Under the pieces are notes generated by a model that saw only the letters and a list, made by a program, of their open reading frames with translations, was not told the origin of the DNA and searched no databases. From NCBI GenBank assembly GCA_038217285.1, contig JBBQPO010000199.1:1-11693 (forward strand): a stretch of DNA of 11,693 nt. The letters are read 5' to 3'. Source of the stretch: Chthonomonadales bacterium (GTDB lineage: Bacteria; Armatimonadota; Chthonomonadetes; Chthonomonadales; Chthonomonadaceae). Positions 1 through 11,693 of this stretch are shown one piece after another (positions within the stretch are counted from its first letter, which is position 1; the number at the start of each line of letters is the position of its first letter). The position numbers were made by a program, and so were the translations under genes.

Positions 1-473
1 CGACGGGAAATGAGATGGTTGTAGTCACGCACACGACGAGACTCTTTGCCCTGCAGAGTGCGTACTCGCTTGCGAGAGGATTTGGTGTTGTGCCTTTGAA
101 GTCCTCGCCGGAGTTCGTAATGGTGGGAGCGCACAGCCCTGTTCAGGAGCAGCACCAAGAAAAACATGATCCTGCCGCCTACAGCGTGGGTCGTTGGACC
201 TTGCTGCTGGCTGACTGAAAAATGCAGCACATCGTGTTCGCTGTCAAACTGGCGTGTGAATCCCACGACCACTCCTGCATCAGTAACGAGTGCGCTGCCG
301 TCTTCCAGCGACGGATGCTCGACCTGTCCCATCTGCAGGACCTTCCCGACCCAGTCCCCGATCTGCCGATAGTGTACGTCGCTGTAGACCTTCCGGTAGT
401 ACTTCGCTTTGGCTCTTGCTTTGAGCCCGACGAAGGCGATAATGGCCAGAAGCGCAAGGATAATATAGGGCAT
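1..473 (-). CDS. Hypothetical protein with N-terminal membrane anchor; 3'-partial and possibly interrupted near position 141
   Basis: Not in the ORF track because it runs off the window edge. Manual translation from ATG 473 gives MPYIILALLAIIAFVGLKARAKAKYYRKVYSDVHYRQIGDWVGKVLQMGQVEHPSLEDGSALVTDAGVVVGFTRQFDSEHDVLHFSVSQQQGPTTHAVGGRIMFFLVLLLN..., with no stop before base 1. RBS-like AGGTGA lies just upstream. After ~141 the translation turns Arg/Ser-rich and looks unlike a natural protein. Confidence 0.6.
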   Translation of the reverse strand, partial: MPYIILALLAIIAFVGLKARAKAKYYRKVYSDVHYRQIGDWVGKVLQMGQVEHPSLEDGSALVTDAGVVVGFTRQFDSEHDVLHFSVSQQQGPTTHAVGGRIMFFLVLLLNRAVRSHHYELRRGLQRHNTKSSRKRVRTLQGKESRRVRDYNHLISR

Positions 474-515
474 GTGTTCACCTGTCGCGGTTGGAGGTTT
501 GGAGAGTTCGCGCCG

Positions 516-560
516 TTGTCGGTTCCTGTACATATCATGTTATAATACCAGGAAGGAGGT
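516..560 (+). promoter_or_regulatory. Sigma70-type promoter and RBS of the TA operon
   Basis: Perfect extended -10 TGtTATAAT at 538-546. Weak -35 TTGTCG at 516-521 (19-nt spacer). SD AGGAGGT at 554-560, 5 nt before ATG 566. Inverted repeats TTCCTG(523-528)/CAGGAA(549-554) and ACAT-atc-ATGT(530-540) surround the -10. Confidence 0.75.
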
Positions 561-565
561 GTAGA

Positions 566-865
566 ATGGCAGGTATGACTTTTGCCTCGAAACTTAAGGA
601 CGACGGTTCGTTTACCATCCCTCAAGAAGCAGTCGAGACGCTGGGGCTTCATCCCGGTGACGTGATAACCGTTCGGATCGAAGCCAATGGTATTTCCCAT
701 ATCGGGGAGCCGAATCAGGCGGAACTTCAACGGCGGGCCGCTCTCCGATTTGCCGAGGCCGACCGACTGGTTCGAGAACCAGGGAAACCGCTCTCTGATC
801 CGATGGAAGCGGCCTGGGCCACAGGCGTTGAAGAGAAGGCACACAGAATGGGGCTTAAACTGTGA
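566..865 (+). CDS. AbrB/MazE/SpoVT-type antitoxin (VapB-like), 99 aa
   Basis: N-terminus SKLKDDGSFTIPQEAVETLGLHPGDVITVRI fits the swapped-hairpin AbrB pattern (GxxTIPxxxxxxLGLxxGD). Strong SD before ATG 566. Its stop overlaps the GTG start of the PIN gene (GTGA 862-865). Confidence 0.85.
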   Translation: MAGMTFASKLKDDGSFTIPQEAVETLGLHPGDVITVRIEANGISHIGEPNQAELQRRAALRFAEADRLVREPGKPLSDPMEAAWATGVEEKAHRMGLKL

Positions 866-1268
866 CCCTGACGGATGCTGGGCCGCTTGTGGCTCTCGTG
901 GACACCGGACAGCCGCAGAACGCACGGTGTCGCGCTGCCTTCGCGATCCTTCGACTGCCGTTGCTTACGACATGGACCGCGTTTTCCGAGGCGATGTACC
1001 TACTTGGTAGGATCGGCGGATGGCCCCTCCAGCGCAACCTGTGGCATTTCGTTGAAGATGGAACGCTGGTCTTCCATGTCTCTTCGAGAGAAGAGCAAAT
1101 CCGGGTGAGGACGCTGATGGAACAGTATCACGACAGACCGATGGACTAGCAGACGCATCTCTTGTCGCGGTGGCCGAGGCTCGTGGAGACAGGCGCATCT
1201 TCACTATAGACGGTGACTTTTACATTTATCAATGGAATGGCCGGGAACCGTTCGAGGTCATGCCTTGA
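862..1268 (+). pseudogene. vapC: VapC/PIN-domain toxin, frameshifted by a 1-nt deletion at ~1146-1147
   Basis: First frame reads MTLTDAGPLVAL...TAFSEAMYLL...YHDRPMD then TAG (1147-1149). The -1 frame from 1149 continues ADASLVAVAEARGDRRIFTIDGDFYIYQWNGREPFEVMP* (TGA 1266-1268). Adding one base (GAC [C/T]TA GCA) restores the typical PIN motif PMDLADASLV...IFTxDxDF. Confidence 0.88.
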
Positions 1269-1323
1269 AATTTGACAGCGACAAAGTCACCAAGCAATCC
1301 AAAGGCGTCGTGGAGACAGCGAT

Positions 1324-1380
1324 ATGATCACTAATGCCTCCGATCTGAATGTGGCGTTACAGCAACTTACGCAGTTTGCG
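1324..1380 (+). pseudogene. 5' fragment of a small hypothetical gene, cut at the left end of the palindromic element
   Basis: GGAG at 1312-1315 precedes ATG 1324. MITNASDLNVALQQLTQFA is an amphipathic-helix-like start. From codon 20 the ORF reads through the palindromic element, so the 85-aa ORF is probably chimeric. Confidence 0.45.
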
Positions 1381-1606
1381 TTGACGTTTAGACTATTTTC
1401 GCCCGTCCGAAACAGCGATCAAAGACGATTTGAGATCGGAGACCCTAACTCTAATGAAATGCTAGGAATTTATAGCGAGTTGGGTACAGCCCGTTCGCTG
1501 TCCCAAAGTGCTATAAATTCCTGGCAAAACTTTCGGGAAATGCTTTTTGATCTCACTCAACGTCGATGTGGCTCCGTTTGAAGGCTCCATTTAGTCTAAA
1601 CGTCAA
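1381..1606. mobile_element. 226-bp palindromic MITE-like element with perfect 15-bp terminal inverted repeats
   Basis: TTGACGTTTAGACTA (1381-1395) is the exact reverse complement of TAGTCTAAACGTCAA (1592-1606). Nested inverted repeats share the same centre (~1493): TGAGATC 1431-1437/GATCTCA 1549-1555, AGGAATTTATAGC 1464-1476/GCTATAAATTCCT 1510-1522, and TTGGGtACAGC/GCTGTCCCAA around a 6-nt loop. No transposase is encoded and no target duplication is visible. Confidence 0.7.
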
Positions 1607-1800
1607 GCCACTGAAAGTTGGGCGTTATGGAGGTTCATCTTTGAAACCAATTGATCAGGAGTGAGATTCTGAAATGATGGATGCAGTACGCGAAGTTGCG
1701 CGATGAAGGCTGGATCGAATGACAGCCAAAGCTTTAACAGCTGCTTGGACTGGTTCTTTAGATGGCGAATGTTCGGAGATGTTGGAAGATGCTTATTCAT
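1603..1800 (-). pseudogene. Truncated gene encoding an N-terminal 'LPxxPxxxxLKxQxKxLL...AQ' domain (type usually fused to ankyrin or other C-terminal domains)
   Basis: MNKHLPTSPNIRHLKNQSKQLLK...LHNAQLSVA*. SD AAGGGGG lies 5 nt upstream. The stop codon comes from the first bases of the element's terminal repeat, just where the family motif, as I recall it, continues AR.YGF.SW. Confidence 0.65.
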
Positions 1801-1942
1801 AACGACCCCCTTTCATAAATGCCTGATGTCCGTTAGTACAGGCAGAAAGAAGGTGTTCTCATAAGCGAGGACACAGTTAAGTTTGAGAGAAAAAGCATTT
1901 GGCCTATGGCCTTTCAGCGGACAGGTCGCGAATGCGGCGCGA
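1801..1942 (-). ncRNA. Candidate structured 5' leader RNA (cis-regulatory)
   Basis: It lies between a near-consensus promoter and ATG 1800. Hairpins: UCGCG/CGCGA (1942-1926), GGCC-AUA-GGCC (1911-1901), GUGUcCUC/GAGaACAC (1874-1853). A long stem CCUUCUUUC-UGCCUG/CAGGCA-uuuau-GAAAGGGGG (1853-1806) buries the SD. UGUCCG (1923-1918) is complementary to CGGACA (1832-1827) in that stem's loop. Confidence 0.6.
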
Positions 1943-1948
1943 TAGGGT

Positions 1949-1988
1949 ATTTTACCAACAGATTCGCAATCTGTCAAGCTTTGCGAAT
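1949..1988 (-). promoter_or_regulatory. Near-consensus sigma70 promoter with overlapping palindromes
   Basis: Minus strand reads TTGACA (1977-1972), 17 nt, then TAAAAT (1954-1949), with an extended -10 TG. Palindromes: ACAGATT-cgc-AATCTGT (1958-1974) and ATTCGCAA (1962-1969)/TTGCGAAT (1981-1988). Confidence 0.8.
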
Positions 1989-2060
1989 GGATTTTATTTT
2001 TTGAGTGTAACGATCCCTAAATTGGCCGCTCTAGAGCGGATCGGTTACCTTAGAAAGTAT

Positions 2061-2096
2061 GAAAAAGCCGTTCGGTCAACAGGACCGAACGGCTTT
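2061..2096 (-). terminator. Rho-independent terminator of the tRNA gene
   Basis: 14-bp perfect stem AAAGCCGTTCGGTC/GACCGAACGGCTTT (2064-2077/2083-2096) with a 5-nt loop and a T-run on the minus strand, 4 nt downstream of the tRNA CCA. Confidence 0.88.
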
Positions 2097-2100
2097 CAAT

Positions 2101-2177
<77 letters not shown>

Positions 2178-2189
2178 TCATCGAAAAAT

Positions 2190-2218
2190 AGTATGCCACA
2201 GGTCGGGGCCTTTGTCAA
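2190..2218 (-). promoter_or_regulatory. tRNA promoter
   Basis: TTGACA (2218-2213), 17 nt, CATACT (2195-2190), 12 nt upstream of the tRNA 5' end. The -35 box contains the AraC stop codon. Confidence 0.75.
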
Positions 2219-3174
2219 GAGTGGATTGGCGGTTGAGGAGAGGAAAGTTCGGTTGAAGGCACGGTACAGGGTGGCACATCGATGCCTGCGGGGACGACGG
2301 GGGGAGGGGAGGTAGTGCGGCTTTTGCGGTAGTCGCGGGGGCTCTGGCCGATCCCGCGTTTGAAGCGCAGGGTGAAGTAGAAGGGGTTTTCGAAGCCGAG
2401 TTCTTCGGCGATAGAGTGGATGGGTCGGGCGCTGAATTCGAGAAGCTGGCAGGCACGGTCGAGGCGCTGGCGCTCCAGAAACTGGACGGGAGTCAGGCCG
2501 ACCTGCTTGCGGAAGAGATGGCCCAGGCGCGATCCGGACAGGCCGACGACCGCGCCGAGCTGGTCGAGGGAGAGGTTGTGGGTGTAGTTCTGGCAGAGGT
2601 AGTCCATGGCGGCGCGGACACGCCCGTCGATGACCGGCTGACCCTGACGCGGGTTGACGGTGTCACAGAGCAGGAGGGCAGCTTCGAGGGCGTTCATCGC
2701 GAACTCTTCCCGTCGACGGTGCGCGCCCGTCGTGTGGCGCAGCGCCTCGTCGAGTTTGGCGATGATCTCTGCCTGTAGAGCCGCGTCTTCCAGCGTCAGA
2801 TGCACGAGGCCCGGTGCGATCTGTGGCCAGTCCAGCCATTCCAGCCAGTGCGGGTGGGGGTGGAAATGCGCCCAGAGCAGCTCCCACGAGCCCGCCGGAG
2901 TCGCCACACCATAGTCGTGCAGGGCTCCGGGGGGAAGCAGCACCAACTCTCCGGGAGACGTTCGCGCCTCGCCGCCTGCGAACCCGAAACGACCGCTGCC
3001 GCTCAACGTCGCGATCAGCAGCCAGTCGGTCGTACCGTGCGCCCGCCAGGTCGCATACCCACGGCCCTCCTGGAAATGCCCCATGACAAGGTGCCGGAGC
3101 AACGGTCGAACCGCCTCCGCGCGTTGGGGCGGTGCGGAAGTCGTTGGGCGAAAATTATAGGTTTGCAGCGGCAT
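2215..3174 (-). CDS. AraC-family transcriptional regulator (N-terminal cupin-like ligand-binding domain, C-terminal double HTH)
   Basis: C-terminal motif LSLDQLGAVVGLSGSRLGHLFRKQVG...IAEELGFENPFYFTLRFKRGIGQSPRDYR. N-terminal domain resembles arabinose-operon AraC (PGELVLLPPGALHDYG, WELLWAHFHP.PHW.EWL.WP). Pro-rich tail. Confidence 0.95.
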   Translation of the reverse strand: MPLQTYNFRPTTSAPPQRAEAVRPLLRHLVMGHFQEGRGYATWRAHGTTDWLLIATLSGSGRFGFAGGEARTSPGELVLLPPGALHDYGVATPAGSWELLWAHFHPHPHWLEWLDWPQIAPGLVHLTLEDAALQAEIIAKLDEALRHTTGAHRRREEFAMNALEAALLLCDTVNPRQGQPVIDGRVRAAMDYLCQNYTHNLSLDQLGAVVGLSGSRLGHLFRKQVGLTPVQFLERQRLDRACQLLEFSARPIHSIAEELGFENPFYFTLRFKRGIGQSPRDYRKSRTTSPPPVVPAGIDVPPCTVPSTELSSPQPPIHS

Positions 3175-3180
3175 TGCGCC

Positions 3181-3220
3181 TTGTTCCCCTGTCGAAGTGA
3201 TGTTATAGTTATAGTATCAC
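3181..3220. promoter_or_regulatory. Overlapping divergent promoters for araC-like and phyH-like genes
   Basis: Plus strand: TTGTTC (3181-3186), 17 nt, TATAGT (3204-3209) with extended TG. Minus strand: TGaTACTAT (3219-3211). Both are bracketed by GTGAT/ATCAC (3197-3201/3216-3220). Confidence 0.5.
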
Positions 3221-3267
3221 ACGACGCCGGGATGCCGCAAGCGCTGCGGCGACCACAGAGGGAATCT

Positions 3268-4098
3268 ATGCAGACGCACACGCAACACGCGCTGAGCCTG
3301 GAGCAGCAGAAACAGTTCGAGCGCGACGGCTATATCGTCCTTCCTCGCCTCTTCACGAACGCCGAGGTGGACACGATCCGCGACGCCTTCATGGAGGCGA
3401 ACGCCGACGGGCCGATCCCGAATCTCTCTGAGATCAATCCTAACTTCAAGGCCGACGACCCACTCGCCTTCTATCCCCGCATGATGCATCCGCACCGCCA
3501 TCCCGAGCTTCCCATCGGGACTCTTGCGAGGGAGACGATGCTGGACGCCCGTATCGGCGCTACCCTAAAGGATCTGTTTCAAGAGGAGCCTGCCGCCGTG
3601 CAGAGCATGTTCTACTTCAAGCCGCCGGGGGCGCGGGGGCAGGATCTGCATCAGGACAACTACTACCTGCGCGTGAAGCCAGGAACCTGCATCGCCGCCT
3701 GGCTGGCCGTCGATGCCGCCGACCCGGAGAACGGCGGCATGGTCGTGGTGCCGGGTTCAAATCATACCGACGTCGTCTGCCCGGAAAAGTCCGACTCGAC
3801 CCTCTTCTTCACCAACGATCACGTCGCCATTCCGGAAGGGCTGGCAGAAGTCCCTCTCACCCTCAACGCGGGCGATGTCCTGTTTTTCAACGGCAGCGTG
3901 ATCCACGGCTCCTACGGGAACTCCAGCACCGACCGTTTCCGCCGTGCCTTCATCTGCCACTATGTGCCTGTCTCCAGCGCAGAACTGTCGCAGTGGTACA
4001 CGGAGCCCACGACCTTCGACGGCGAACTGGTTGGAATCCCCGCAGCGATCGGCGGCGGACCCTGCGGTGTCGCGGAGACGGTGAAAGGCCCGCACTGA
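3268..4098 (+). CDS. Phytanoyl-CoA dioxygenase (PhyH) family Fe(II)/2-oxoglutarate oxygenase, 276 aa
   Basis: LSLEQQKQFERDGYIVL start, FKPPGARGQDLHQD (HxD), AAWLAVD...ENGGMVVVPGS, GDVLFFNGSVIHGS..N...FRRA. SD GAGGGA before ATG 3268. The longer 2800 start overlaps araC and is rejected. Confidence 0.93.
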   Translation: MQTHTQHALSLEQQKQFERDGYIVLPRLFTNAEVDTIRDAFMEANADGPIPNLSEINPNFKADDPLAFYPRMMHPHRHPELPIGTLARETMLDARIGATLKDLFQEEPAAVQSMFYFKPPGARGQDLHQDNYYLRVKPGTCIAAWLAVDAADPENGGMVVVPGSNHTDVVCPEKSDSTLFFTNDHVAIPEGLAEVPLTLNAGDVLFFNGSVIHGSYGNSSTDRFRRAFICHYVPVSSAELSQWYTEPTTFDGELVGIPAAIGGGPCGVAETVKGPH

Positions 4099-4155
4099 TC
4101 GCCACCAAACACGGAGGAGTCCTCATTACAAGGTGCAACATTGGCGAGGTGCGGC

Positions 4156-4184
4156 TTGTCTAACCTGTCTGAAACGTGTAGAAT
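4156..4184 (+). promoter_or_regulatory. Putative sigma70 promoter for the cytochrome c domain gene
   Basis: TTGTCT (4156-4161), 17 nt, TAGAAT (4179-4184). Confidence 0.5.
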
Positions 4185-4247
4185 GAAGAGGCACATCGCG
4201 TCGCGTTGACGCGGGGCGCCTCTTCGGCATGAAATGAGGGAAAGACC

Positions 4248-6815
4248 GTGATGCGTCCGCAGCGCTTCCTGTTTGCATTCGCACTTCTGTTGCCTGTTGT
4301 CGGCGTTCTGTCGGCGGCGAATGCAGGCCAGGCGGCTCTCCATAAGAAGACCAGCGCCAGAGGAGCGACCGGCGGTCGAAAGTCTTCGGTTACGGCTGCC
4401 CCCGTGGCTCTCGTGAGTTATCGGGAAGAGGTCGAGCCGATCTTCAAATCGACCTGCGGCTCCTGCCACAGCAGCGACAAACATAGCAGCGGCTTCGTGG
4501 TCGAAACGCCCGACGCACTCTTCAAGGGCGGCACGCGTACCGGAACCAAAATCGTCGTCCCTGGCAAACCGGCGGAAAGTGCGCTGCTCGCCTACCTTCA
4601 TGGTGCGAAGCAGCCCCGCATGCCCCTGAACAGCCCGCCGCTCGCCCCCGGGAAGCTCAAAACCATCGAAACCTGGATCGCGCAGGGCGCGAAGATCGAC
4701 GCTGTCAAGCTCGGCTATCCCTACACCGCACCCGTCGCGCATACCGTCCCACACGTCAAAAATACGGCGTGGGTGAAGAGTCCGATAGACGCCTTTATCC
4801 TCGCCAAACTGGAGTCGAAAGGGCTGAAACCCGCCCCACCCGCCCCGAAAACGACCCTGCTGCGCCGCGTCTATGCCGATCTTATCGGCGAGCCGCCGAC
4901 GCCGCAGGAGGCCGACGCCTTCCTGAACGATACGACCCCGAAAGCGTACGAGACGCTGGTGGACCGCCTGCTCGCCGACCCGCGCTACGGGGAGCGCTGG
5001 GCGCGGCACTGGCTAGACCTCGTTCGCTTCGCGGAGACCCACGGCTTTGAAAATGATGGTGTGCGCCCACGCGCCTGGCGCTATCGCGACTACGTGATCC
5101 GCGCGTTCAACAGCGACAAGCCCTACGACCGCTTCCTCAAAGAGCAGATCGGCGGCGACGAACTCTATCCCACCGACGCCGACGCCATCACCGCCACCGG
5201 CTTTGCTCGCCTCGGCCCCTGGGACGAGCTGAGCACCGACCATCCGCAGCGCTGGCAGGACTACCTGAACGACGTCACCGACACCACCGGCTCCGTCGTG
5301 CTCGGCCTCACCGTCGGCTGCGCCCGCTGCCACAACCACAAGTACGACCGCATCTCCCAGGCCGACTACTACCGCCTGCAGAGCTTCTACGCCAGCACGA
5401 AGTGGGTCGAAACCCGACTGCCAGACGGCAGCGACAGTCCGGTCTATGTGCAGAAGACCGCCGCCTCACGCGCCCGGCTGGCAGATCTGCAGAGGCAACT
5501 CCACGACCTGCGTGAGAGCCATCGCGCATTCGCCATCGGCGAGAAGCAGAAACAGGCGAAGAATGGCGCAGCGGTCACCTCGATCAAAGAAGAGGAGATC
5601 GACCGTTACCTCAAGGACGCCGACCGCGACCACCGCAACCAACTGGAGAGCGACATTCGCGGTCTGGAGAGCCAGATCGCCCCATACGACCCGGTCGCGG
5701 AGGCCATCTCGGAGGATAACAAGGCCGGGGTGACGGAGCACCTTCTGCTGCGCGGCAATCTGCTGACGCCGGGGCCGGAAGTAAAGCCCGGATTTATCGC
5801 CGCACTCATCGGAGGGGAAGAGAAACCGGCTGACATCGCGCCTCCGGCGAACGGCCACACCAGCGGACGACGCGCCGCGCTTGCGAACTGGCTTGGCAGT
5901 CGCGACAACCCGATGACCGCCCGTGTCATGGTCAATCGCCTCTGGCAGCACCACTTCGGACGTGGCATCGTCGCCTCTCCCTCCGATTTCGGACGCAACG
6001 GTGACCGGCCCTCGCACCCGGAACTTCTGGACTGGCTGGCGATGCAGTTCATGGATCAGGGCTGGAGCCTCAAGAAGATGCACCGCCTTATGCTGCTCTC
6101 CAACACCTACCAGATGTCGTCGAAACTTGACCCGATAGCCCTGAAGGCCGACCCCTATAACGCTCTCCTCTGGCGCATGAACCGTATTCGTCTCGAAGGC
6201 GAACCGTTGCGCGACTCCATTCTTGCGGTTAGCGGACGCCTGAACCCGACGATGGCCGGGCCGAGCGTCTACCCAAAAATCAGTGACGAGGTGCTTTCGA
6301 CAGGTTCGACCCACAAGTGGGGCTCCTCCACCGAAGCGGACGGACTTCGCCGCACGATCTACGTATTCCAGCGCCGCTCCCTCGTCCTGCCCATCGTCGA
6401 AGCCTTCGACGGCGCGGACATGGCCAACACCTGTCCGCGCCGCGGCGTCACGACCATCGCGCCGCAGGCCCTCGCCCTGTTCAACGGTGACTTCACCCGC
6501 ACCGAGGCCGGTTTCTTCGCGGAGCGCGTACGTAAGGACGCCGGTGACGACCGCAGCAAACAGATCGACCGCGCCTACCAGATCGCCCTCTGCCGCCGCC
6601 CGACCGCCGCGCAGAAACAGACCGCCCTGGATTTCCTGACACGCCAGACGCAACTCCATCTCGACACCGCCCATCAGGCGACCAGCGGCCCGACGGCCCA
6701 ACACGTCGGCTTCACCACGCCAGACGACAAAACGCAGAAGGCCGCCGCGCAGGCCGCGCTCGCCGACTTCTGCCACGTCATCCTCAACACCAACGAGTTT
6801 CTCTATCTCGACTGA
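4248..6815 (+). CDS. Exported planctomycete cytochrome c + DUF1549 (PSCyt2) + DUF1553 (PSD1) domain protein
   Basis: Signal peptide; CxxCH motifs CGSCH and CARCHNH; VVPGKPAES...RMP (PSCyt1); IDAFILAKL...LLRRVY.DL.G.PPT...YGERWARHWLD (DUF1549); NPMTARVMVNRLWQHHFGRGIV...SHPELLDWLA...QALALFN...NEFLYLD (DUF1553). Start is GTG 4248 or ATG 4251. Confidence 0.93.
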   Translation: MMRPQRFLFAFALLLPVVGVLSAANAGQAALHKKTSARGATGGRKSSVTAAPVALVSYREEVEPIFKSTCGSCHSSDKHSSGFVVETPDALFKGGTRTGTKIVVPGKPAESALLAYLHGAKQPRMPLNSPPLAPGKLKTIETWIAQGAKIDAVKLGYPYTAPVAHTVPHVKNTAWVKSPIDAFILAKLESKGLKPAPPAPKTTLLRRVYADLIGEPPTPQEADAFLNDTTPKAYETLVDRLLADPRYGERWARHWLDLVRFAETHGFENDGVRPRAWRYRDYVIRAFNSDKPYDRFLKEQIGGDELYPTDADAITATGFARLGPWDELSTDHPQRWQDYLNDVTDTTGSVVLGLTVGCARCHNHKYDRISQADYYRLQSFYASTKWVETRLPDGSDSPVYVQKTAASRARLADLQRQLHDLRESHRAFAIGEKQKQAKNGAAVTSIKEEEIDRYLKDADRDHRNQLESDIRGLESQIAPYDPVAEAISEDNKAGVTEHLLLRGNLLTPGPEVKPGFIAALIGGEEKPADIAPPANGHTSGRRAALANWLGSRDNPMTARVMVNRLWQHHFGRGIVASPSDFGRNGDRPSHPELLDWLAMQFMDQGWSLKKMHRLMLLSNTYQMSSKLDPIALKADPYNALLWRMNRIRLEGEPLRDSILAVSGRLNPTMAGPSVYPKISDEVLSTGSTHKWGSSTEADGLRRTIYVFQRRSLVLPIVEAFDGADMANTCPRRGVTTIAPQALALFNGDFTRTEAGFFAERVRKDAGDDRSKQIDRAYQIALCRRPTAAQKQTALDFLTRQTQLHLDTAHQATSGPTAQHVGFTTPDDKTQKAAAQAALADFCHVILNTNEFLYLD

Positions 6816-6860
6816 TGGTCGTCAAAGGGATTTCTGTTACCCCCGAGGGTTGAGGGCAGG

Positions 6861-7844
6861 TCAAACGTGGCGGACGAGGTCGTGGATGCGGATCATGCCG
6901 ATGCAGTGGCCGGAAGAGTCTACGACGGGGGCGACGGAGAGGGCGCGGGGACGATCTTCCATAAGACGCAGGGCCTCGTAGGCGAGCTGATCAGGATGGA
7001 GGATGAGGGCAGGGCGTCTGTTCATCATGTCGGCAGCCGTTAGCAGGAAGGCGCCTGCCTCGTGCTTCTGAAGGGCGTTGCGCAGATCCGATTCCGCAAT
7101 GAGGCCGAGCAGACTGCCGTTCGAATCGGTGACGCAGGTCGCGCCGACGTGTTTGGTGCTGATCTCACAAACGACATCCATAAAGGGCGTAGAGGGCTGT
7201 ACGTGGGGTAGGGCATCCTCTCCGACAGGCATGACGTCGCGGACGCGCATCGTGAGGCGACGGCCCAGGCGCCCGCCGGGATGGTTGAGGGCGTAGTCCT
7301 CCTCCCGGAAGCCGCGCCGCTTCTGCAGGGTCATGGCGAGCGCGTCTCCGAGGGCCATCGCGACCAGCACACTGGTGGTTGGGGCGAGATTGAGCGGGCA
7401 CGCTTCGCGCTCGATAGAGGCGTCGAGCACGACCGTGGCCCTTTGCGCCAGTGTGGACACCAGATTACCGACGATAGCGATCATCGCGACATCGCGCGCC
7501 AGAAGCGCCGGGAGAATCGCCAGCAACTCCTCGCTCTCACCGCCGTTCGAGAAGGCGATGATGACGTCGTGCGGCAGTACGATTCCCAGGTCGCCGTGCA
7601 TGGCCTCGGAGGGGTGGAGGAAGACGGTGGGGCAACCCGTCGAGGTCAGGGTAGCCGCCAGTTTACGCGCCACCATACCGGACTTGCCGACGCCCGTCGT
7701 GATCACTTTTCCCCGACAGGAATCCAGCAGATCGAGCGCATGCACGAACGACTCGCCCAGTCTTGCGGAGGCCGCTTCGATGGCGGCTGTCGCCACCTCC
7801 AGCGTCTCCTTACCAAAATCTACTTCTCCGTTCCTATCTTCCAT
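6861..7844 (-). CDS. kdsD: KpsF/GutQ-family arabinose-5-phosphate isomerase (SIS + CBS pair)
   Basis: TGVGKSG, FLHPSEAMHGDLG, REACPLNLAPTTS, HPGGRLG and two CBS repeats. ATG 7844 is chosen because GAGG precedes it. Confidence 0.93.
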   Translation of the reverse strand: MEDRNGEVDFGKETLEVATAAIEAASARLGESFVHALDLLDSCRGKVITTGVGKSGMVARKLAATLTSTGCPTVFLHPSEAMHGDLGIVLPHDVIIAFSNGGESEELLAILPALLARDVAMIAIVGNLVSTLAQRATVVLDASIEREACPLNLAPTTSVLVAMALGDALAMTLQKRRGFREEDYALNHPGGRLGRRLTMRVRDVMPVGEDALPHVQPSTPFMDVVCEISTKHVGATCVTDSNGSLLGLIAESDLRNALQKHEAGAFLLTAADMMNRRPALILHPDQLAYEALRLMEDRPRALSVAPVVDSSGHCIGMIRIHDLVRHV

Positions 7845-7904
7845 ATTGCCTCGCTGCACTTCCAAAACGTCATCTTTTCGTGCCTGTTGGTGGCTCTGTT
7901 GCGT

Positions 7905-8903
7905 TTATGATACCTCAGAACGCCAGTAGGAGAGCGTGTCGTGCAGGGTTGTCTCCAGCGAATAACGAGGTTGCCAACGGGTGGCCGCGCAGAGTTTACG
8001 CGGGTCTCCAGTGGAACAGGCGATGTCGGCGGGCCGCATTCGCGCAGGGTCGGTCTTGACGGCGATGGGCACGGAGCAGAGCGCGCGCAGACGGTCGAGA
8101 ACCTCGCGCATGGCGATCGGCGCTCCGGTCGCGACATTGTAGGTTTCGCCTGCCGTCGCCTGCTCCATCAGCAGCCGGTAGGCGCGGACCACGTCCCGCA
8201 CGTCCAGCAAGTCCCGGCGCGCCTCCAGGTTGCCCACCAGGAGTTCAGGGGGCTGCTCCCCGCGCTCGATGAGGGCGATTTGGCGGGCGAAGGCGGGAGC
8301 GGCGAACGTCGGCGCCTGACCGGGGCCGGTGTGGGAGAAAGCCCGGACGGTGAACGCCAGGTCGCGATACTCCGCCGCCACGGCTTCCATAGCGATCTTG
8401 CTGTCGGTATAGGCTCCGAATCTGCCGAGGGAAGCGAGCGAATCGGATTCCCGGGCGGGCCGCTCGGCCTCCGTGTCGCCATAGACATAGCCGGTGCTCA
8501 CAAGCAGGACGCGTGGAGGAGACGGAAGCGAACGCGCGGCGGCGAGCAGATTCCGGCTTCCGTCCACATTGACTGAAAAGACAGCTTCGCGGTCGGGATC
8601 CGCCCCGGAGGCGCGGGCCGCCAGATGATAGACCTGAGTCGGTCGCAACGCGGTAAGAAGCGCCGCTGTGGCCGCCGCATCGCGTACGTCCAGAGGCACA
8701 AGATCGATAGGCCCATCGAGATCAGGGCCGCCCTGGCCGGAACCGGGAGGCGCGTGTGTGCTCGAGTGAGGCTCCGATTCCGCGTGGGTGGCAGCGAAGA
8801 TCCTGACGGGGAAGAGGGGCGGGGCCAGCAGCGCGGTGAGCAGATGTCTGCCCACAAAGCCGTTCGCCCCGGTAATCAGAATGCGTGTCGGTTCCAGAGG
8901 CAC
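7905..8903 (-). CDS. Extended SDR, probable GDP-4-keto-6-deoxy-D-mannose reductase (Rmd-like)
   Basis: ILITGANGFVG, VYHLAA, YTDSK (YxxxK), RAFSHTGPGQ, VGNLEARRDLLDVRDVVRAY, DPARMRPAD. Lies directly downstream of gmd. GTG 8903 has SD AAGGA. Confidence 0.8.
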   Translation of the reverse strand: MPLEPTRILITGANGFVGRHLLTALLAPPLFPVRIFAATHAESEPHSSTHAPPGSGQGGPDLDGPIDLVPLDVRDAAATAALLTALRPTQVYHLAARASGADPDREAVFSVNVDGSRNLLAAARSLPSPPRVLLVSTGYVYGDTEAERPARESDSLASLGRFGAYTDSKIAMEAVAAEYRDLAFTVRAFSHTGPGQAPTFAAPAFARQIALIERGEQPPELLVGNLEARRDLLDVRDVVRAYRLLMEQATAGETYNVATGAPIAMREVLDRLRALCSVPIAVKTDPARMRPADIACSTGDPRKLCAATRWQPRYSLETTLHDTLSYWRSEVS

Positions 8904-8917
8904 CGCTGTCGTCCTTC

Positions 8918-10740
<1,823 letters not shown>

Positions 10741-10771
10741 TACGTTCTTATTCCTTTTCTCGGTTTTGCTG

Positions 10772-11693
10772 TTAGCGTCGGCGCGCGGGAACCAACTGCG
10801 CGGCGGTAAGTCGCGCGGCATAGTAGGGCGGACGAGAAGGAACGACTTCCGGCAGGCTCAACAGTTCTTCGGTCGTGCGCTCCTCGTTCGGCTGGCGCAG
10901 GACGGCCTGCGCTGTCTCCAGTACGCTCTCCTCGGTGATGGCGTCGAGGCAGCGGCGCACCGCATCGTCGTCTTGTGCCGGTTCGTCCGGAAAGACGACG
11001 ACCGAACGATGGCGCGGCGCATCGTATCCCCAGCGCACCACTTTATTTGGACCGAAGATGCCGACGCTGGCGACCCGCTGCGCGACCGCAGCGTGCAGCA
11101 AGCCTGTATCGTTGCTAAGCCACAAGTCGCACTGTCCGATGGCGGCCAGAGCCTCGCGAAGAGGCAGCTTGCCGACCAGATCGATGACAGGGAACTGAAG
11201 AGCTTTCGCTGTGCGTTCCGCCGTCGCGCGTTCGGCTTCCCCTCCCATCAGTACCACCTGACCGCCGTTGTCCGCGACTAAGGTGTTGGCGACGTAGGCG
11301 TAGCGCTCCGCGCCCCATTCGCGGATCGGGGCGTCGTTGGCTCCGGGCTGAATACCGATCAACGGACGACTCCCGTCCCAGCCGTGTTGACGAAGAATTT
11401 CTCGGCCTCGTTCCTTTTCGTCCTCCGTCATCCAGAGGTCCGGCAGGGCGTCACGGGCGGGAAGGCCGAGCGCGCGCAGCATATCGAGATGGCAGTCCAC
11501 CTCGTTACGGTCGAAGAAGTAAGGAATGGGAACGGTGAGAAATGGCCGACGAAACTCATTGATGTAACCGATTCGGGCAGGAAGATGCGCGGCCCAGCAG
11601 GTCACGGCGCAGTGCAGCGAACGATTGAGCAAAAATCCGGCCTCATAGTTCCCGGTCCGCAGCAGGGCATGAAGCTCGCGACCGTGCTGCCAG
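10772..11693 (-). CDS. Glycosyltransferase family 9 (ADP-heptose:LPS heptosyltransferase-like), 5'-partial
   Basis: Frame stays open to the window edge ([25 protein letters not shown]...). Motifs IGIQPGA...[41 protein letters not shown]. Confidence 0.9.

Follow-up and report, generated by a model that had tools for sequence, protein, structure and literature searches.

Introduction

Two kinds of described bacterial leader resemble, in their working, the RNA reported here. Translational riboswitches of the guanidine-II, guanidine-IV/mepA and SAM-II-like types likewise combine a sensor domain, a helix that hides the Shine-Dalgarno (SD) sequence and a contact between a sensor loop and a platform loop, and in guanidine-II and guanidine-IV riboswitches loop-loop contacts respond to ligand. 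Among autogenous leaders, those of ribosomal proteins usually differ between phyla. These leaders and the 'protein-binding candidates' in the main text of PMC11109978 are also structured 5' untranslated regions that stand before the gene of one protein, include its ribosome-binding site and are linked to that gene. Here we analyzed a leader RNA on the minus strand of a contig from a Chthonomonadales bacterium (GenBank assembly GCA_038217285.1, contig JBBQPO010000199.1, positions 1 to 11,693; this whole stretch of 11,693 nucleotides (nt) is called the window). A preliminary description, made from the letters of the window, had proposed a promoter, a structured leader and a short open reading frame (ORF) behind it, and all three were recovered in place on the minus strand. 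Comparison of homologues directly supports the conservation of the leader, its pairings including two pseudoknots, its position at the transcript start and its near-obligate link to one N-terminal protein domain. Leaving aside the identity of its trigger, we consider it likely that the structured leader is real and acts in cis on translation through a sequestered SD sequence.

The leader differs from each of these precedents. Compared with autogenous leaders, its partner is an uncharacterized N-terminal domain that occurs on many different C-termini and whose binding to the RNA is putative; in contrast to ribosomal-protein leaders, the RNA is the same across phyla. Unlike the translational riboswitches, it has no Rfam match and no ligand-related genes. 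PMC4793209 describes a further precedent, the yjdF motif, as an orphan riboswitch candidate almost exclusive to one protein family of unknown function. However, yjdF is another RNA with another protein, whereas the association described here is with a domain shuffled onto different proteins. Solibacter-1, an acidobacterial motif that is not in Rfam and is tabled as not cis-regulatory in PMC2864571, was considered and excluded: its alignment holds a different sequence, and none of the core words of the leader occurs in that paper's four text supplements.

Searches with Rfam 15 (4227 models) placed no family at the leader when the window was scanned at the gathering threshold. At E ≤ 10, positions 1300..2250 gave a transfer RNA (tRNA) and a chance P11 match elsewhere, with nothing at the leader, and 14 representatives from several phyla gave nothing at the RNA at E ≤ 1. 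The leader thus belongs to no catalogued (Rfam) family; the preliminary description had been unable to name one. A literature search returned no description of the motif; it covered the main text of the 2017 catalogue, and an earlier listing of the motif under another name is possible. Consulted by term, the main texts of PMC5737381, PMC11109978 and a 2026 bioRxiv preprint do not describe it.

A leader RNA with two pseudoknots

The leader, ~148 nt in length, occupies positions 1801..1948 (minus strand, as for all its parts below). A covariance model of it (R1; 134 positions, 25 pairs) matched the window over 1798..1948 with 115.2 bits, ranking it seventh among 63 copies found by the model alone, without a sequence pattern. 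To assess the pairings we compared aligned homologues. In 13 aligned sequences 90.8% of cells pair, compared with at most 49.0% when the partners are slid, and in 101 homologous leaders the corresponding values are 92.2% and at most 53.2%. Changes on both sides occur in 30 of the 36 pairs in the 101 leaders, and cells with such changes number 360 versus 119 ± 12 in shuffles, none of 500 shuffles attaining the observed values in this test, which is inflated by related sequences. Because 52 of the 101 aligned sequences were gathered by a pattern fixing GTCCGCGG...GCGGAC, that is both strands of pseudoknot PK2, the PK2 pairing of those 52 is present by selection.

Both pseudoknots were also examined in the 63 copies found without a pattern, permuting own against swapped partners 2000 times. 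Own partners scored 11.37 for PK1 (swapped, 8.87 ± 0.26) and 17.52 for PK2 (swapped, 15.94 ± 0.20), values reached by none of the 2000 permutations in either case. Two control pairings with non-partner loops showed no effect (846 and 878 of 2000 permutations reached the observed value). Independent compensated variants of PK2 among the 63 copies are GUCUGC/GCAGAC, GUCCAC/GUGGAC, AUCCGC/GCGGAU, GUCCGU/ACGGAC and GUCCGG/CCGGAC, and three divergent copies add GACCAC/GUGGUC and GCCUGC/GCAGGC.

The fold, derived from the alignment and then tested, consists of hairpins P1, P2 and P4, an optional hairpin P3 and the two pseudoknots. The preliminary description had counted four stems, which correspond to P1 to P4, and had overlooked both pseudoknots. 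In the alignment, P1 (1926..1942) is a GC-rich hairpin in which UCGCG (1942..1938) pairs with CGCGA (1930..1926) around the loop CCGCAUU; as helix 1 of the 101-copy test it has both-side changes in 4/4 pairs. A short helix, P1b, which presents GUCCGC in its loop, is well defined in the short subtype; in the window it is weak. PK1 (1895..1935), identified by covariation, joins GCAUU of the P1 loop (1935..1931) to AAUGC just 3' of P2 (1899..1895). It corresponds to helix 2, with both-side changes in 5/5 pairs; the GCAUU/AAUGC of the window is replaced elsewhere by GCGUU/AACGC, UGCAC/GUGCA or GCAGG/CCUGC. The P2 hairpin (1901..1911), found by RNAalifold and covariation, pairs GGCC (1911..1908) with GGCC (1904..1901), whereas most copies have GGGC/GCCC; it is helix 5 of the test, 98.0% paired with both-side changes in 4/4 pairs. 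The words GCATTCG, CCGCTGAAAGGC and GCCAA, which the preliminary description had singled out, are located in this region at 1935..1895.

The 3' part of the fold is dominated by P4 (1806..1853), supported by folding and covariation, in which the anti-SD strand CCUUCUUUC (1853..1845) pairs with GAAAGGGGG (1814..1806). Across copies the anti-SD CCUUCUUUC faces the SD sequence GAAAGGAGG, and an inner GCCYG/CRGGC stem, in the window GCCUG (1843..1839) with CAGGC (1825..1821), closes a loop of ~13 nt. P4 corresponds to helices 6 and 7 of the 101-copy test, which are 94.6% and 98.6% paired and have both-side changes in 8/9 and 2/5 pairs, respectively. It is the sole helix of the single-sequence centroid fold, appears also in RNAalifold, and covers the SD sequence. 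Its terminal loop carries the 3' strand of PK2, CGGACA (1827..1832), which pairs by covariation with UGUCCG (1918..1923) in the 5' domain; in general form, GCGGAC of the P4 loop is complementary to GUCCGC of the 5' domain. P3 (1853..1874), seen in the alignment, is an optional hairpin of the long subtype that pairs GUGUCCUC with GAGAACAC with one mismatch and is common to the window and to copies L014, L031 and L035. In the consensus of the 63 sequences, CCnGUCCGCGGRaAGgg and GCCYG..gCGGAC..CRGGC are near-invariant, and conserved unpaired positions are otherwise few. An alternative 'anti-anti-SD' pairing, between GGRAAGG and the anti-SD strand, was rejected, as no matching changes were seen by eye on the alignment.

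We next turn to the start of the transcript. Upstream of the window leader, the promoter scan identified a -35 hexamer TTGACA (1972..1977) and a -10 hexamer TAAAAT (1949..1954) with TG directly 5' of it. This TTGACA-17-TAAAAT promoter (1977..1949), as claimed in the preliminary description, matches the consensus at 11 of 12 positions. Positions 1200..2400 hold three promoter-like sites, compared with 0.7 ± 0.9 in shuffles. From the promoter, the window transcript is predicted to start at about 1943..1941 on the minus strand. At 80 of 101 loci a TANNNT hexamer is placed at -9..+2 relative to where the RNA match starts, and 62 of these 80 hexamers begin at offset -7 to -5, whereas shuffled flanks gave at most 5 at any single offset. 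Given this placement of the hexamer at the match start, the motif begins at the 5' end of the mRNA.

Distribution of the leader across phyla

The leader is far better conserved than the protein behind it. At a second locus of the same genome, on contig C218, which encodes an ankyrin protein of 515 amino acids (aa), the 54 nt before the ATG are 80% identical to those of the window and the N-terminus 29%. A BLAST search with the last 66 nt of the leader matched 8 of 41 related genomes, at 13 places in all (E < 0.01). All 13 directly precede an ORF beginning LPxxPxLxxLKxQAK, and their alignment extends over the entire ~130-150 nt between the -10 hexamer and the ATG. Upstream regions of the homologues thus share both sequence and covarying structure, in the 13 BLAST places and the 101 leaders. 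Within the family, R1 detected the RNA in 20 of 42 genomes, with 43 matches in total and up to 9 in a single genome; within the order it was present in 24 of 68, and in an even sample of the phylum in 33 of 151 genomes, from many families.

Beyond the phylum, a scan of the genomes of 185,579 species with a degenerate pattern yielded at least 120 stretches. Of 80 loci fetched from these, 52 contain full-length R1 matches, in at least seven phyla, and the remaining 28 resemble chance matches; comparable leaders thus stand before such genes in distant bacteria too, as the preliminary description had stated. According to the record titles, from which lineages were taken, the named matches listed include many Acidobacteriota (Bryobacterales, Terriglobia, Vicinamibacteria, Blastocatellia, Thermoanaerobaculia) and Actinomycetota (Streptomyces, Nonomuraea, Pseudonocardia, Actinocrinis, Solirubrobacterales, Streptosporangiaceae). 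Others come from Gemmatimonadota, Chloroflexota (Limnocylindrales), Verrucomicrobiota (Opitutaceae), Eremiobacterota (Baltobacteraceae) and two metagenome-assembled genomes of Alphaproteobacteria. The top-scoring matches among those listed are from Bryobacterales and Terriglobia. Within the genus of the Streptomyces match the RNA was detected in 2 of 121 sampled genomes, under stricter filters and with a model built from distant sequences.

The surroundings of the copies were also analyzed. In a set of 87 upstream neighbour ORFs, Pfam families recur at most twice and include no transposase or integrase; a conserved neighbour or partner gene was therefore rejected. On viral contigs, 1 of 23 pattern matches is a real copy, and a link to phages was dropped on this count. 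Although the window copy adjoins a tRNA-Met gene, tRNA adjacency as a general feature was rejected as well, with a tRNA nearby in 1 of 60 other loci. This single case is the Opitutaceae copy (L130:836-912), where a tRNA-Asp lies ~260 nt upstream of the leader.

Coupling of the leader to an N-terminal domain

Each of the 63 copies found by the model alone is followed by a gene whose product begins with the domain. In 61 cases the ATG or GTG of the match itself is the start of that gene, and in 2 the start is a few nucleotides further; one of the 63 copies ends at the edge of its locus. Using a hidden Markov model (HMM) of the domain, we found it within 420 nt downstream of 99 of the 101 copies, three of them split over two frames; the HMM had been built from 57 of the 101, and in the independent remainder 42 of 44 match. 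The genome of the window contains exactly two domain loci, which are its two RNA loci. In the 151-genome sample of the phylum, 38 genomes are domain-positive and include all 33 that are RNA-positive. In three of the other five, a divergent RNA was detected directly upstream with filters off (E 8.9e-9, 1.5e-5 and 9.9e-5). Finally, in five named genomes of other lineages the RNA lies immediately upstream of 10 of 12 domain genes, as we grouped 16 profile matches. These counts agree with the proposal of the preliminary description that RNA and domain travel together.

Some loci carry the unit in series. Tandem RNA-plus-gene modules, each with its own leader, occur at G099:C7:190-1743 (L073) and G123:C3:143143-144696 (L075), and two tandem copies of the domain follow a single leader at G076:C182:9130-9627, G112:C4:356493-357017 and G206:C7:58197-58697.

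The domain spans ~85 aa with the motif LPxxPxLxxLKxQAK...LSDAQ..AREYGFxSWxxLK and the consensus M...LP..P.Le.Lk.QAK.Llka..a.dp.a..r.....p...LsdAQ.v.AReyGF.SWp.LK..v. It is basic (median isoelectric point 9.55, 70% above 9; median net charge +3), and an AlphaFold model of it has five helices (pLDDT 71.8). Homologues were collected by profile search, and comparison of the domain with Pfam, NCBIfam and the PDB placed it nowhere. The product of the window ORF (P0001) matched no Pfam family at E ≤ 10. Of 57 domains compared with Pfam, 18 touch PF20066 (Glyoxalase_8), the best at E 9.2e-4 and none near the cut-off. NCBIfam returned no family for 5/5 domain queries. Among PDB sequences the domain profile had no meaningful match, a designed protein (E 0.0058) scoring best, and the protein Atlas returned solely unnamed hypothetical clusters.

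As the preliminary description had stated, the domain occurs on otherwise unrelated proteins. Among 89 downstream proteins, 62 contain ankyrin repeats, 10 other Pfam families and 17 no Pfam family. The 10 are CarboxypepD_reg, DUF2092, HEAT, DUF1835, DUF4287/AHSA1 (two proteins), leucine-rich repeat (LRR) and beta-lactamase (three proteins). A wider profile search gave 437 proteins at E ≤ 1e-5 of 8000 scored, mainly LRR proteins of ~645 aa and, besides them, ankyrin proteins; fusions to pentapeptide repeats and zinc fingers were also seen. One of these is P0020 (384 aa), in which the zinc fingers joined to the domain are, by sub-threshold NCBIfam matches, of the DksA/TraR and ClpX types.

Proposed mechanism and alternative explanations

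In the mechanism that we propose, the leader would form the 5' end of an mRNA transcribed from its own sigma-70-type promoter. The 5' domain (P1, P2 and PK1) and P4 would be locked together by PK2, since the P4 loop pairs with the 5' domain. In the locked state the fold would block access of the 30S subunit to the SD sequence, and its loosening would permit translation to start. Such a gate would serve genes whose products begin with the basic five-helix domain, whatever is fused behind it.

What sets the lock is a separate matter, on which our leading guess, given somewhat less than an even chance, is autogenous feedback: the encoded N-terminal domain would bind its own folded leader. As in autogenous leaders, the RNA regularly stands before the gene of a single domain (99/101). 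Feedback is consistent with the constant partner being the domain and not a pathway, with the basic character of the domain and with the small number of conserved unpaired nucleotides. By analogy it would also fit the pattern of autogenous leaders, in that the domain is almost never found without the RNA and the unit needs no neighbour.

Several points weigh against a leader that acts in this way, in addition to the inflated shuffle tests and the pattern-fixed PK2 strands given above. Folding of the window leader by itself gave a minimum free energy of -36.9 kcal/mol versus -34.05 ± 3.26 kcal/mol in shuffles (z = -0.87), 39 of 200 shuffles being as stable. Since this is no better than shuffles, structure cannot be proven from the window alone; it is the comparison of homologues that shows it. 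The earlier claim of a structured leader accordingly stands on the 101 homologues (92.2% vs at most 53.2%), single-sequence folding by itself deciding nothing for or against it. Two copies of the RNA, L156 and L107, have no domain downstream. Conversely, with filters off no RNA was detected in two domain-positive genomes, G006, which has two such loci, and G137, where the domain match is weak. With regard to transcription, a metatranscriptome of another habitat contains a 151-nt contig ~92% like 1783..1934 (12 differing letters, 1 gap); it is a weak hint that the leader of a relative is transcribed, and it could be DNA in that library. Among the sequencing runs searched, a single one truly contains the window sequence, a DNA run that is probably from the source sample, and no RNA run of the window organism was found. 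That the SD pairing represses translation we infer from the anatomy of the leader. The remaining points bear on feedback by the domain. Foldseek with the domain model (pLDDT 71.8) gave no match at E ≤ 0.001, the best VIA Z being 4.4, without a clear fold match. Judged by this model, the domain appears to have no recognizable RNA-binding or known fold. Furthermore, genomes with up to 9 copies would cross-regulate.

Feedback can be extended to a bolder proposal, raised in the preliminary description as a portable unit, which we hold tentatively and think somewhat unlikely. Promoter, leader and domain would together make up a self-contained, horizontally portable ribonucleoprotein switch, the domain being a new RNA-binding domain for its own kissing-loop fold. 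Freshly made domain would clamp the fold of the leader and stop further initiation; in a still bolder version, the RNA would stay bound as a cofactor of the protein. If the portable switch were true, any fused protein (ankyrin, LRR, hydrolase) would receive the same tight, copy-by-copy control of dosage.

A riboswitch is the main alternative to feedback and, in our view, somewhat less probable. Here the 5' domain, with P1, PK1, P2 and the GGRAAGG junction, would bind either a small molecule or an ion that sets the PK2 lock, and all the domain proteins would answer one signal. The leader has the complexity of a riboswitch, with two pseudoknots, a sensor domain whose structure is supported by covariation, and a separate expression platform that overlaps the SD sequence. 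It lies at the 5' end of the transcript, is spread across phyla and has no conserved neighbouring regulator gene. The ligand-responsive loop-loop contacts of guanidine-II and guanidine-IV offer a parallel to PK2, and yjdF, in the text cited above, is a precedent for an orphan candidate tied almost solely to one family of unknown function. However, riboswitch-controlled genes would be expected to share a metabolic or transport theme, whereas 62 of the 89 proteins here are ankyrin proteins and the rest are mixed or without Pfam family. The controlled genes encode repeat proteins (ankyrin, LRR, HEAT) and an assortment of others, with no transporter or pathway hinting at a ligand; what is constant is the N-terminal domain and not a function. 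In addition, the domain is almost never found without the RNA, which is unusual for riboswitch-controlled families, and few conserved unpaired nucleotides remain to form a pocket.

It is improbable that the leader has no specific effector, and provides instead thermometer-like or constitutive damping, affects mRNA stability or responds to some general factor, an RNA chaperone or an RNase for example. The long SD/anti-SD helix does dominate the predicted fold, and the gene context points to no ligand or partner. However, thermometers are simple hairpins, and two covarying pseudoknots with a conserved 5' domain over several phyla exceed what damping needs. The leader is set apart from RNA thermometers (ROSE, fourU and others) by these extra covarying helices and pseudoknots, and no Rfam thermometer family matches it.

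Conservation at the level of DNA (a mobile element or recombination site), or a free-standing non-coding RNA partner of the guide or antitoxin-like kind, is highly improbable even though the module occurs in unrelated neighbourhoods, is patchy across phyla (2/121 genomes in the genus of the Streptomyces match) and in the window is found in low-GC sequence next to a tRNA gene and a transposable element, because the compensatory changes preserve RNA pairs in one orientation and always end at an SD sequence and start codon, and because transposases or integrases (none among 87 neighbours), tRNA genes (1/60 loci) and true viral copies (1/23 pattern matches) are not its regular company.

If confirmed, the leader would represent a complex two-pseudoknot class present in at least seven phyla and would join the short list of widespread bacterial leader RNAs. 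The class is commonest in soil Acidobacteriota, in which gene regulation is, to our knowledge, almost unstudied. It is unusual in being tied not to a pathway but to a domain shuffled onto many repeat proteins, and for this reason the RNA offers a handle on the domain and on thousands of 'hypothetical' ankyrin/LRR proteins. The domain in turn is a concrete candidate for the effector of the RNA.

The truncated gene of the window and its neighbourhood

The ORF behind the window leader (1603..1800, minus strand, by translation) has 65 codons and a TGA, with a GGGGG SD sequence upstream; its product reads MNKHLPTSPNIRHLKNQSKQLLK...AQLSVA. The preliminary description took it for a small-domain gene. 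Sequence comparison indicates that it is instead the stump of a larger gene, similar to those of P0002 and P0005, and retains the first two thirds of the domain. Its closest relatives are proteins of 599, 197, 140 and 884 aa with 56-69% identity, in which the domain continues (...NAQ..ARxYGFQNW...), and the domain profile covers positions 1-65 of 94 in the window, reading through the TGA. Pfam recognizes no family in the closest full-length relatives, P0002 and P0005 (884 aa); P0005 has a cysteine-rich C-terminus that shares 38% identity with another locus of the window's own genome (G000:C24:1127-1720).

The gene is cut at codon 65 by a 226-bp element (1381..1606, no strand; identified by its inverted repeats and copies), which the preliminary description had overlooked. 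Perfect 15-nt terminal inverted repeats (TTGACGTTTAGACTA) form its arms at 1381-1395 and 1592-1606, and the stop codon of the ORF lies inside the right arm. Whole copies with 82-92% identity are present on four other contigs (C302:1947-2172, C90:1-226, C186:5366-5592 and C227:7055-7281), partial copies lie at many contig ends, and the 15-mer occurs 47 times in the genome. Being short, bounded by inverted repeats and recurrent in the genome, the element is a miniature inverted-repeat transposable element (MITE). The best DNA run covers it at a depth of 46-142, compared with 5.8 in the flanks. No target-site duplication was seen by eye, and, since no contig of the sequencing runs joins across the MITE, no MITE-free form was seen. 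The 15-mer often sits ~125-141 nt from a contig end, so the assembly is probably interrupted by a larger element that shares these ends. Searching the whole genome by tblastn with P0002, P0005 and P0003 for the remainder of the gene gave only residues 1-65(67), at 1800..1600; the remainder was probably lost through rearrangement between repeat copies. Promoter and leader are intact in the window, and the locus now drives at most the 65-aa stump. An 85-aa ORF (1324..1581, plus strand), largely inside the MITE and without a Pfam match, is probably spurious.

The G+C content is 44-51% in 1200..2100 and 60-70% beyond. Plus-strand ORFs at 491..865 and 862..1149 (the latter continuing in another frame to 1268) resemble by eye an AbrB/VapB-type antitoxin and a PIN/VapC toxin with a frameshift; at E ≤ 0.001 the ORFs of 491..1268 had no Pfam match. 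On the other side of the leader, an inverted-repeat search located a perfect 14-bp GC-rich hairpin followed by a T run (2064..2096, minus strand), next to the tRNA-Met (CAT) gene identified by Rfam/tRNA match (2101..2177, minus strand). A promoter-like site at 2218..2190, matching 10 of 12 consensus positions, precedes the tRNA-Met gene. Further on lie the neighbouring genes of an AraC-family regulator (minus strand, 2215..3174) and of a PhyH dioxygenase (plus strand, within 2800..4098), followed by that of a PSCyt1/PSCyt2/PSD1 protein of 855 aa (4248..6815). As the listed start of the PhyH gene overlaps the AraC gene, its true start is probably later. The low-GC stretch 1200..2100 begins directly past the tRNA-Met gene and the hairpin, resembling the insertion site of an island.

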